Source: a virus (Duplodnaviria > Heunggongvirae > Uroviricota > Caudoviricetes). Taken from it: a DNA stretch of 8,910 nt. This document shows, in pieces, positions 3,810 to 7,271 of the stretch (position 1 is its first letter; each line of letters starts with the position of its first letter). Under the pieces are notes generated by a model. The model had not been told where the DNA came from. It ran no database searches and was given only the letters and a program-made list of their open reading frames with translations. The stretch is taken from the IMG/VR virus record IMGVR_UViG_2778261536_000007; one strand, written 5' to 3'. The position numbers were made by a program, and so were the translations under genes.

Positions 3810-4149
3810 TAGCTAATCAACAAAGCTAAGGTTAGTAATTAAGGAGTTCTCCACGGGTGAGGTGGAGTGCGTGCGCCGGACACGGGTGAGCATCCGGCAC
3901 TGACAGTTTACTGAAAGGATATTTCCCTGAAAAGTCAGACCATAACGCGAAAGCGCACGGCGAGGTAGCTGGTTCATAGATAGCCTGTCGTTAAATTTTC
4001 GTCGACCGTGCGCTTCCGGTTGTGGCAACCCGCGAAATGGCGCGGCGGTAAGTATGGCGGGGTTATTCCTTCCCCGTTGAGGACACCGGGTTGTCAGGTT
4101 GACCATACGCTTAAGTGACAACCCCGCTGCAACGCCCTCTGTTATCAAT

Positions 4150-4202
4150 TTTCTGGTGACGTTTGGCGGTATCAGTTTTACTCCGTGACTGCTCTGCCGC
4201 CC
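4150..4202 (+). ncRNA. dicF: DicF small regulatory RNA (53 nt), processed from the dicB operon transcript
   Basis: Sequence TTTCTGGTGACGTTTGGCGGTATCAGTTTTACTCCGTGACTGCTCTGCCGCCC matches DicF as I remember it. It sits between ydfC and dicB with no protein-like ORF and ends in a GC-rich stem plus T-run. Confidence 0.7.
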
Positions 4203-4207
4203 TTTTT
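4165..4207 (+). terminator. Rho-independent terminator-like 3' end of DicF (GGCGG...CCGCC stem followed by TTTTT)
   Basis: GGCGG (4165-4169) can pair with CCGCC (4197-4201), directly followed by TTTTT (4203-4207). Read-through is needed to express dicB downstream. Confidence 0.45.
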
Positions 4208-4376
4208 AAAGTGAATTTTGTGATGTGGTGAATGCGGCTGAGCGCACGCGGAACAGTTAAAACCAAAAACAGTGTTATGGGTGGATTCTCTGTATCCGGC
4301 GTTAATTGTTAACTGGTTAACGTCACCTGGAGGCACCAGGCACTGCATCACAAAATTCATTGTTGAGGACGCGATA

Positions 4377-4565
4377 ATGAAAACGTTATTACCAAACGTT
4401 AATACGTCTGAAGGTTGTTTTGAAATTGGTGTCACTATCAGTAACCCAGTATTTACTGAAGATGCCATTAACAAGAGAAAACAAGAACGGGAGCTATTAA
4501 ATAAAATATGCATTGTTTCAATGCTGGCTCGTTTACGTCTGATGCCAAAAGGATGTGCACAATGA
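4377..4565 (+). CDS. dicB: Cell-division inhibitor DicB (62 aa)
   Basis: ATG at 4377 preceded by GAGGA with 7 nt spacer; the longer track ORF from 4272 has no start signal. Translation MKTLLPNVNTSEGCFEIGV... and 62-aa length match DicB. Confidence 0.8.
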   Translation: MKTLLPNVNTSEGCFEIGVTISNPVFTEDAINKRKQERELLNKICIVSMLARLRLMPKGCAQ

Positions 4566-4753
4566 ATTCAGCATTTGTGCTTGTTCTGACAGTTTTTCTT
4601 GTTTCCGGAGAGCCAGTTGATATTGCAGTCAGTGTGCACAGGACAATGCAGGAGTGTATGACTGCAGCAACCGAACAGAAAATTCCCGGTAACTGTTACC
4701 CGGTCGATAAAGTTATTCACCAGGATAATATCGAAATCCCGGCAGGTCTTTAA
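4562..4753 (+). CDS. ydfD: Small protein YdfD (63 aa) with N-terminal hydrophobic segment, lysis-associated
   Basis: ATG at 4562 overlaps the dicB stop (ATGA), AAGGA 8 nt upstream. N-terminal hydrophobic stretch AFVLVLTVFLV followed by a Cys-containing soluble part. Confidence 0.75.
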   Translation: MNSAFVLVLTVFLVSGEPVDIAVSVHRTMQECMTAATEQKIPGNCYPVDKVIHQDNIEIPAGL

Positions 4754-4846
4754 AACAGTTCCGTAATAAATATCCGGTTTCATTCTTATATGCCAGCAAT
4801 GGCAGGGATTTGTTCATCCTTAAATCTGTCATGAGGTTAAAACAAA

Positions 4847-5104
4847 ATGAGTAAAGTCTTTATTTGCGCCGCTATTCCTGACGAACTGGCAACAAGGGAA
4901 GAAGGCGCTGTGGCTGTAGCCACAGCCATTGAAGCTGGCGACGAACGCCGTGCTCGAGCAAAATTTCACTGGCAGTTCCTGGAACATTATCCGGCTGCTC
5001 AGGACTGCGCTTATAAATTTATTGTCTGCGAGGATAAACCTGGCATACCCCGCCCTGCCCTCGATTCATGGGATGCTGAATATGCAGGAAAACCGCTGGG
5101 ATGA
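4847..5104 (+). CDS. Hypothetical small protein (85 aa) preceding the exonuclease gene
   Basis: ATG with GAGG about 10 nt upstream. Its 3' end overlaps the beginning of the long exonuclease ORF in another frame. Confidence 0.55.
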   Translation: MSKVFICAAIPDELATREEGAVAVATAIEAGDERRARAKFHWQFLEHYPAAQDCAYKFIVCEDKPGIPRPALDSWDAEYAGKPLG

Positions 5105-7271
5105 GGAGTCTGCTTCTTTTGTCCCGGTTGAGACTGAATCCGATCCGATGAACGTCACTTTTGACAAGCTGGCCCCTGAAGTACAGAACGCTGTCATGGT
5201 TAAGTTCGACACATGTGAAAACATCACCGTTGATATGGTTATTAGCGCACAGGAATTGTTGCAGGAAGACATGGCAACATTCGACGGACATATCGTTGAA
5301 GCGTTGATGAAAATGCCAGAAGTTAACGCCATGTATCCGGAGCTTAAGTTGCACGCCATTGGGTGGGTTAAGCATAAATGTATTCCTGGTGCTAAATGGC
5401 CCGAAATTCAGGCAGAGATGCGCATCTGGAAAAAACGTCGCGAAGGTGAACGCAAGGAAACCGGAAAATACACGTCTGTTGTTGATCTCGCCCGCGCCAG
5501 AACCAATCAACAGTACACTGAAAATTCAACAGGAAAAATCAGCCCGGTCATTGCTGCCATTCATCGCGAATACAAGCAGACATGGAAAACACTGGATGAC
5601 GAACTGGCCTACGCTCTCTGGCCTGGTGATGTGGATGCCGGAAACATTGACGGCAGCATCCATCGCTGGGCAAAAAAAGAAGTTATCGACAACGACCGCG
5701 AAGACTGGAAGCGTATCTCGGCATCAATGCGCAAACAGCCTGATGCCCTTCGCTACGACCGCCAGACTATTTTTGGCCTTGTCCGTGAGCGTCCGATCGA
5801 CATTCACAAAGATCCCATAGCACTGAACAAATATATCTGCGAATACCTGACGACAAAGGGCGTGTTTGAGAATGAAGAAACAGACCTGGGCACTGTTGAT
5901 GTTCTCCAGTCATCAGAAACACAAACTGATGCAGTGGAAACTGAGGTATCTGATATCCCAAAAAATGAAACCGCGCCGGAAGCTGAACCATCTGTAGAGC
6001 GTGAGGGGCCGTTCTATTTCCTCTTCGCAGATAAGGACGGAGAAAAATACGGTCGCGCAAACAAACTTTCTGGTCTGGATAAGGCACTGGCTGCTGGCGC
6101 CACTGAAATCACAAAAGAAGAATATTTTGCCCGAAAAAATGGCACATACACGGGCTTACCGCAAAATGTAGATACCGCTGAAGATTCAGAACAACCAGAG
6201 CCGATAAAAGTTACCGCTGACGAAGTAAACAAAATTATGCAGGCAGCCAATATCAGCCAGCCTGACGCCGATAAGTTGCTTGCTGCATCACGTGGTGAAT
6301 TTGTTGAAGGGATTAGTGACCCGAATGATCCGAAATGGGTTAAGGGGATCCAGACCCGCGATTCTGTGAACCAGAACCAGCATGAATCGGAACGGAACTA
6401 CCAAAAAGCGGAACAAAACAGCACAAATGCGTTACAAAACGAGCCAGAAACGAAACAGCCTGAACCAGTGGCGCAACTGGAAGTGGAAAAAGTCTGCACC
6501 GCCTGCGGTCAGACCGGCGGCGGCAACTGCCCTGATTGTGGCGCGGTGATGGGCGACGCAACATACCAGGAAACATTCGATGAAGAGTATCAGGTTGAAG
6601 TTCAGGAAGATGATCTGGAGGAAATGGAAGGCGCTGAACATCCACACAAGGAGAACACTGGCGGCAATCAGCATCACAATAGCGATAATGAAACTGGCGA
6701 GACGGCAGATCACTCAATTAAGGTGAACGGTCATCACGAAATCACATCCACCAGCAGGACGTGTGACCATCTAATGATCGACCTTGAAACCATGGGAAAA
6801 AATCCTGATGCCCCGATCATCTCAATAGGTGCAATATTTTTCGATCTGGAAACTGCTGGCGGAGTCATTGATCGGGACACCATTAAATGGTGGCTTAAGC
6901 AATCACGCGAAGCGCAATCTGCCATTATGACCGATGAAATCCCGTTAGATGATGCACTGTTACAATTGCGGGAATTTATCGACGAAAACTCCGGTGAATT
7001 TTTTGTTCAGGTTTGGGGAAATGGAGCCAACTTCGACAACACGATTTTGCGCCGTTCATACGAACGGCAGGGGATCCCCTGCCCGTGGCGTTACTACAAC
7101 GATCGCGATGTACGCACAATCGTTGAGCTGGGGAAAGCCATAGACTTCGATGCCAGAACGGCTATTCCATTCGAAGGTGAGCGCCATAATGCACTTGATG
7201 ACGCCCGTTACCAGGCAAAATACGTTTCAGTTATCTGGCAAAAACTGATCCCGAGTCAGGCTGATTCTTAA
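5082..7271 (+). CDS. RecE-like protein (annotated in databases as exodeoxyribonuclease VIII) with C-terminal DEDDh (DnaQ/RNase T-like) 3'-5' exonuclease domain
   Basis: Track ORF 4929-7271 starts on TTG inside the upstream gene; first in-frame ATGs are 5073 and 5082. Middle segment DKLLAASRGEFVEGISDPNDPKWVKGIQTRD resembles E. coli RecE as I remember it. C-terminal about 170 aa carry DEDDh motifs: DLETMG, WGNGANFDN, HNALDDARYQ. Confidence 0.75.
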   Translation: MQENRWDEESASFVPVETESDPMNVTFDKLAPEVQNAVMVKFDTCENITVDMVISAQELLQEDMATFDGHIVEALMKMPEVNAMYPELKLHAIGWVKHKCIPGAKWPEIQAEMRIWKKRREGERKETGKYTSVVDLARARTNQQYTENSTGKISPVIAAIHREYKQTWKTLDDELAYALWPGDVDAGNIDGSIHRWAKKEVIDNDREDWKRISASMRKQPDALRYDRQTIFGLVRERPIDIHKDPIALNKYICEYLTTKGVFENEETDLGTVDVLQSSETQTDAVETEVSDIPKNETAPEAEPSVEREGPFYFLFADKDGEKYGRANKLSGLDKALAAGATEITKEEYFARKNGTYTGLPQNVDTAEDSEQPEPIKVTADEVNKIMQAANISQPDADKLLAASRGEFVEGISDPNDPKWVKGIQTRDSVNQNQHESERNYQKAEQNSTNALQNEPETKQPEPVAQLEVEKVCTACGQTGGGNCPDCGAVMGDATYQETFDEEYQVEVQEDDLEEMEGAEHPHKENTGGNQHHNSDNETGETADHSIKVNGHHEITSTSRTCDHLMIDLETMGKNPDAPIISIGAIFFDLETAGGVIDRDTIKWWLKQSREAQSAIMTDEIPLDDALLQLREFIDENSGEFFVQVWGNGANFDNTILRRSYERQGIPCPWRYYNDRDVRTIVELGKAIDFDARTAIPFEGERHNALDDARYQAKYVSVIWQKLIPSQADS

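Follow-up and report, generated by a model that had tools for sequence, protein, structure and literature searches.

Among the described relatives of the gene considered here is ydfE, of the E. coli K-12 prophage Qin, which has been described as a pseudogene of the dicB operon (bioRxiv 10.1101/2024.09.21.614188). Our search of the literature on ydfE turned up no study of what the protein does; the gene is only listed there as one of that operon's pseudogenes. The K-12 copy is truncated after ~256 codons by IS2, while a short ATATAT repeat in its 5' part is intact. An uninterrupted form of the gene is found in CFSAN064036, where RefSeq annotates a single CDS of 2472 nt as 'exonuclease' (WP_001515375.1, 823 aa). 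This Qin-like/PPompW-type protein matches phrog_2082 from end to end and is composed of the domains YdfE_N, YdfE_C and Rv2179c-like. The putative exonuclease of PPompW_EH2246 (LC567836, PPompWEH2246_030) is homologous as well, with 90% amino acid identity over the first 160 residues. It too is annotated as frameshifted by a deletion, but the deletion lies elsewhere, and its first 160 codons, ATATAT included, are intact.

RecE (exodeoxyribonuclease VIII, NF007259) resembles the intact protein in its non-catalytic part, over residues 246-625. The resemblance is a partial, central match of 280.4 bits, against a cutoff of 1269 bits for membership in NF007259. The catalytic domain of the intact protein is not that of RecE; it is predicted to be a 3'-5' exonuclease domain of the DEDDh Rv2179c-like type, and its closest match among solved structures is PDB 8kel, a 227-aa 'Exodeoxyribonuclease'. 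Many records name the gene 'exonuclease VIII' because its central part resembles RecE, and judged by its domains this label looks like a misnomer.

The stretch of DNA that we analyzed (8,910 nucleotides, here called the window) is a lambdoid E. coli prophage that resembles Qin. Its gene order is that of a DicC-like Cro/CI regulator, a divergent HTH repressor in the position of dicA, ydfA, ydfB, ydfC, DicF, dicB, ydfD, the exonuclease gene, xis and int. The DicF small RNA (4151-4202, plus strand; Rfam RF00039, 76.7 bits) lies upstream of dicB (4377-4565), which is overlapped at ATGA by ydfD (4562-4753), and the exonuclease is the next gene of the dicB operon after ydfD. Between ydfD and the exonuclease start (4791-4814, plus strand) the sequence TGCCAGCAATGGCA could form a weak hairpin resembling a terminator, with a T-rich tail after it, although such hairpins are no commoner here than in shuffled sequence. 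Scanning positions 4500-5400 for promoters and terminators yielded no signal beyond what shuffled sequence gives, and it revealed no internal promoter for the downstream part of the exonuclease gene.

The window shares with the intact WP_001515375.1 gene the locus dicB-ydfD-exo-xis-int, the start codon and the domains, and the two differ by one substitution in 2472 nt besides two deletions. Unlike the intact gene, however, the copy in the window is short of 2 bp at codons 79-80 and of a further 45 bp, and it cannot encode the 823-aa protein. With K-12 ydfE it shares the gene itself, the 5' end and the upstream dicB-ydfD operon; the window copy is full length but frameshifted, whereas the K-12 copy keeps its frame through the repeat and is cut short by the insertion. 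The pseudogene in the window, with its two lesions, extends from 4847 to 7271 on the plus strand (as do all features of this gene given below) and is a full-length homologue of K-12 ydfE that would encode 823 aa if it were intact.

Two long open reading frames are found at the 5' end of this gene in the window. The first (4847-5104) begins with ATG and has 85 codons. The second (4929-7271) begins with TTG, has 780 codons and lies in the +1 frame relative to the first. An earlier note on this DNA had drawn attention to the overlap of the two frames and to the fact that the second contains no ATG before 5073 and 5082, and the open reading frame list and the sequence agree with that description: these are the only two ATG codons of the 4929 frame before 5148, and a start at either one would reduce the overlap to the 23-32 nt given there. 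As listed, the two frames overlap by 176 nt, or ~58 codons. This length is unremarkable, since the 4929 frame, whose preceding stop is the TAG at 4917, is open for just 53 codons upstream of the indel at 5080, and since the same exonuclease gene has 4 other places where an off-frame run of 58 codons or more contains no stop. The overlap is within what chance produces; the real feature of the region is a switch of the coding frame at 5080-5083. The good start context that had been ascribed to the 85-codon frame is also real. A GAGG Shine-Dalgarno sequence (4834-4837) is located 9 nt before the ATG at 4847-4849, it is conserved in K-12 and in four phages, and this ATG is the annotated start of the intact CDS. 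The TTG at 4929 and the 51 codons that follow it are, in contrast, simply the +1 frame of the real gene; the stretch 4929-5081 is an apparent 5' extension that is open but not coding.

The cause of the frame switch is a loss of two bases. Where relatives have GAATATATGCAG, with (AT)3, the window has GAATATGCAG, with (AT)2 at 5080-5083, so that ATAT is the remnant of ATATAT. Aligned pairwise, the window and the intact CFSAN064036 CDS differ by a gap of 2 bp near 5079, a substitution at 6008 and a gap of 45 bp that follows 6840. Where the first gap falls, the intact gene reads GAATATATGCAGG and the window GAATATGCAGG, one unit of the repeat having gone, a loss that the pairwise and multiple alignments place in the repeat as a whole and not at a particular position within it. 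In a multiple DNA alignment with six relatives (CFSAN064036, K-12 MG1655, mEp460_ev081, PPompW_EH2246, Evi and phage 204576) ATATAT is present in all 6 and the gap occurs only in the window. The earlier note had suggested that an indel might split a single longer protein and had pointed to the segment gaatatgcag near 5078-5088 as the place to look; alignment to the relatives locates the 2-bp loss precisely there, in what is a continuous 823-aa gene in those relatives. The intact protein reads ...DSWDAEY-MQENRWDEES... across the site. The product of the window is native through Tyr79 and then continues AGKPLG before the TGA at 5102-5104, which is out of frame in the relatives, and the ATG at 5082 is the codon of the internal Met80. 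When the two bases are restored, the ATG at 4847 opens a single gene of 823 aa. The 85-codon frame (4847-5104) is made up of 79 native codons belonging to YdfE_N, six out-of-frame codons and a premature TGA, and what is left of the gene (5082-7271) has moved into the +1 frame and represents residues 80-823 of the intact protein, less 15 aa. We consider it nearly certain that a single prophage exonuclease gene, inactivated by a frameshift, accounts for both reading frames.

The pattern of substitution agrees with a single frame. Upstream of the site, 17-18 of the 21-22 substitutions that separate the window from each of four divergent phages are at third positions of codons in the 4847 frame, and downstream of the site the third-position bias follows the same continuous frame in the relatives. 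Upstream of the site, therefore, the coding frame under selection is that of 4847 and not that of 4929.

The single-frame state is the rule in complete genomes and in phages. Megablast found the region in 4319 of 5426 complete E. coli genomes. The best two matches, 17MR471 and MB10, agreed at 901 of 901 bases, while those that came next, at 99.8% identity, extended over 903 bases and so gave a first indication of a 2-bp indel. Over the 6901 nt compared, the identity of the window to E. coli 17MR471 is 100%; from MB10 it differs by one base, at position 1709. With 63 nt around the site as the query, 3524 E. coli records in 3516 complete genomes gave a match, the site being at the centre of the query, and only 17MR471 and MB10 matched it exactly. 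All the next-ranked records span 65 nt at 96.9% identity and hence carry two extra bases; among the matches of this query in complete E. coli genomes there was no record at 98.4%, the value expected for the deletion with one mismatch. Residues 1-160 of the intact protein, searched by tblastn against 50,697 phage records, gave 17 matches, each of them one uninterrupted 480-nt piece with 90-100% identity. In 17MR471 and MB10 the equivalent of window 4847-7271 is annotated by PGAP/RefSeq as one CDS, a pseudogene, 'frameshifted'; this status was therefore already known in public annotation.

These surveys bear directly on one of the options of the earlier note, that of two genes with an overlap of 23-32 nt. 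In the form considered here, both genes would be genuine and translationally coupled, one encoding an 85-aa protein and the other an exonuclease whose start is the ATG at 5073 or at 5082. Gene callers do in fact report an 85-aa gene and a 729-aa gene from the equivalent of 5082 on other contigs that carry the allele, and the allele persists on ~130 contigs. However, only 2 of the 3516 complete genomes that matched have the arrangement, and it is missing from each of the 17 phage records, none of which has the junction of the window. The ATG at 5082 from which the second gene would start is an internal methionine codon in relatives, and the stop that the first would need, which orthologues do not conserve, is read there out of frame, so that neither half of a coupled pair is conserved as such. 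No strong Shine-Dalgarno sequence precedes 5073 or 5082. The split must also be very recent, since the window differs from the intact allele by a single substitution, and the exonuclease domain of the window copy is itself damaged, as described below. With complete E. coli genomes and phage records showing one frame, we reject the two-gene explanation as very improbable.

The same single-frame state speaks against the suggestion of a programmed frameshift. In this explanation +1 (or -2) ribosomal frameshifting, or transcriptional slippage, would join the two frames into a full-length protein, and the geometry for such recoding is present, the frames overlapping with the downstream one in +1. 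The relatives, however, encode the protein in one frame, so that no recoding signal is needed or conserved in them, and, since the flanks of the site are the same as in alleles that are in frame, a stimulatory element has not evolved there. The interval in which rescue would have to occur (5084-5104; 21 nt, GCA GGA AAA CCG CTG GGA TGA) was inspected by eye, and it contains no prfB-like CUU-UGA, no X XXY YYZ heptamer, no upstream Shine-Dalgarno stimulator and no long homopolymer of the kind that would allow transcriptional slippage. The locus has neither the conserved two-frame arrangement nor, on inspection of this interval, the slippery motif with stimulator that characterize programmed frameshift genes of the prfB, dnaX and IS3 types. 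With the relatives in frame and the rescue interval devoid of a slippery site, recoding was rejected, and we give it almost no credence.

Domain matches are found in both frames. The 85-aa frame matches phrog_2082 at positions 1-80 of 823 (E=6e-55). A scan of this frame against our local copy of Pfam returned nothing; its domain is known only from a newer precomputed model, YdfE_N (PF27430), and the precomputed assignments identify the part that follows as YdfE_C (PF27432). The window has a YdfE_N region directly after dicB-ydfD, as indicated by phrog_2082, PF27430 and synteny, and it has the YdfE_C region and the C-terminal Rv2179c-like domain, with PF27432 and PF16473 both found on the 729-aa calls. 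In the intact protein PF16473, the Rv2179c-like 3'-5' exoribonuclease domain, covers the C-terminal residues 642-813 (E=2.3e-67). The product of 5082-7271 matches the same model with E=5.9e-57, at 192.7 bits versus 226.5 bits for the intact protein. The one property of phrog_2082 and of the full-length YdfE family that the window lacks is a continuous frame of ~823 codons, which the 2-bp deletion splits. The window holds a pseudogene of the Qin-type exonuclease family and, judged by its sequence, no functional member, and the pseudogene is young, being one substitution from the intact allele.

The second lesion is an in-frame deletion of 45 bp in the exonuclease domain, between two copies of TCGATC. 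The intact gene reads ...TTTTTCGATC[CGCAAACC...ACTATCGATC]TGGAAAC..., where the bracketed part is missing from the window, and the deletion removes 15 codons, PQTGDMGPEFSKTID, just after the strand that carries the DxE motif. The junction is marked in the window by the surviving copy of the 6-bp direct repeat (6841-6846, from pairwise alignment and translation), and the deleted bases correspond to L001:5244-5288 in CFSAN064036. Among the complete genomes listed, only 17MR471 and MB10 have this junction as a contiguous sequence. Deletion between short direct repeats, like the loss of a repeat unit, is a classic signature of replication slippage.

A course of decay that accounts for both lesions can be proposed. 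The starting point would be the intact gene, running from ATG 4847 to the stop at 7271 and encoding 823 aa as YdfE_N, YdfE_C and a DEDDh-type Rv2179c-like domain. One AT unit was then lost from the (AT)3 at codons 79-80, probably by replication slippage. Ribosomes starting at 4847 would from then on read 79 native and 6 wrong codons and stop at the TGA at 5102-5104, and the other 744 codons would fall in the +1 frame. By chance this frame is free of stops back to 4917, which gives the look of a second long ORF starting from TTG 4929. The 45-bp deletion between the TCGATC repeats, with its loss of 15 exonuclease-domain residues, may have followed later or arisen independently, and here too the sequence suggests slippage. 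We infer from the two lesions that the window copy has lost its function. Re-initiation at the ATG at 5082 could possibly give an N-terminally truncated product; this ATG precedes the premature stop by 20 nt, the only motif ahead of it is a weak GGGA at a distance of 8 nt, and in the window copy any such product would also carry the deletion in the exonuclease domain.

The exonuclease gene is commonly broken in prophages. All that a search for homologues with the 85-aa frame recovered were short pieces of the gene, cut off at contig ends or frameshifted in other ways, and the search did not reach distant full-length relatives; PHROGs likewise contains separate families for fragments of this protein. 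The window adds to a series of inactivations of accessory genes in the dicB operon, by IS2 in K-12, by other frameshifts in PPompW and by probable slippage in an AT repeat here. The significance of the case is limited mostly to correct annotation, as it is one of ordinary prophage gene decay, and it would be wrong to report the 85-aa and the TTG-started 780-aa ORFs as a pair of genes or as a candidate for recoding.

The frameshift allele is not confined to the window. The exact 85-aa product is present on ~130 public contigs (NCBI, ENA and Logan; indexed in 204 blocks), among them those of the draft assemblies GCA_000713435.1 and GCA_000704965.1 and one metagenome scaffold. All 7 loci that were retrieved have the 2-bp junction. 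Five of the 7 carry the 45-bp deletion as well and are 1-2 substitutions from the intact CFSAN064036 gene; two of these five, L009 and L011, were also aligned directly to the window and differ from it by one base each. These data also address the view that the 2-bp gap is an error of sequencing or assembly and that the organism itself has an intact gene. Short repeats commonly give rise to indel errors, the deletion is seen in only 2 of 3516 complete genomes, and the protein collection contains many differently frameshifted N-terminal fragments that resemble assembly noise. Against this, two complete genomes that are independent and differ in source share the junction, the exact product recurs across the three public collections, in most carriers the frameshift is accompanied by the second, specific lesion, and the frameshift itself sits on three haplotypes. 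This pattern fits inheritance and not random error. An error of this kind was rejected on the basis of that recurrence, and we regard it as extremely unlikely. Since the frameshift recurs in independent assemblies, twice without the 45-bp deletion, it is an inherited mutation and not a read error. The frameshift can exist without the second lesion, and it probably arose first.

Three haplotype backgrounds of the frameshift can be distinguished, namely the type of the window, that of L012, with a different 3' half and integrase, and that of L015, with flanking SNPs. Both L012 and L015 have the 2-bp junction without the 45-bp deletion. L012 departs from the window at three positions in 4000-4249, agrees with it throughout 4250-5677 and diverges strongly from ~5790 on; it is a mosaic recombinant. 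In L015 the SNPs lie within ~300-400 nt on either side of the site. The deletion on three haplotypes and ~130 contigs would be explained if the (AT)3 at codons 79-80 were a recurrent slippage hotspot, or if the YdfE_N fragment or the loss of the exonuclease were mildly advantageous. We think it unlikely that either is so, and a single neutral mutation spread by descent and by lambdoid mosaic recombination fits the evidence equally well. Persistence of the allele on the three haplotypes could mean that the lesion is tolerated or that truncated products retain some activity.

Two features of these loci were noted in addition. In L012 the mosaic breakpoint is inside the exonuclease gene, at the equivalent of window ~5700-5790, and the 3' half, together with the excisionase (PF07825) and the integrase (Arm-DNA-bind_1), belongs to a different lambdoid lineage. 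L015 carries a 21-bp in-frame insertion at gene position ~1543 (window ~6388), where the exonuclease has an acidic central linker of low complexity; this linker appears to be variable in length.
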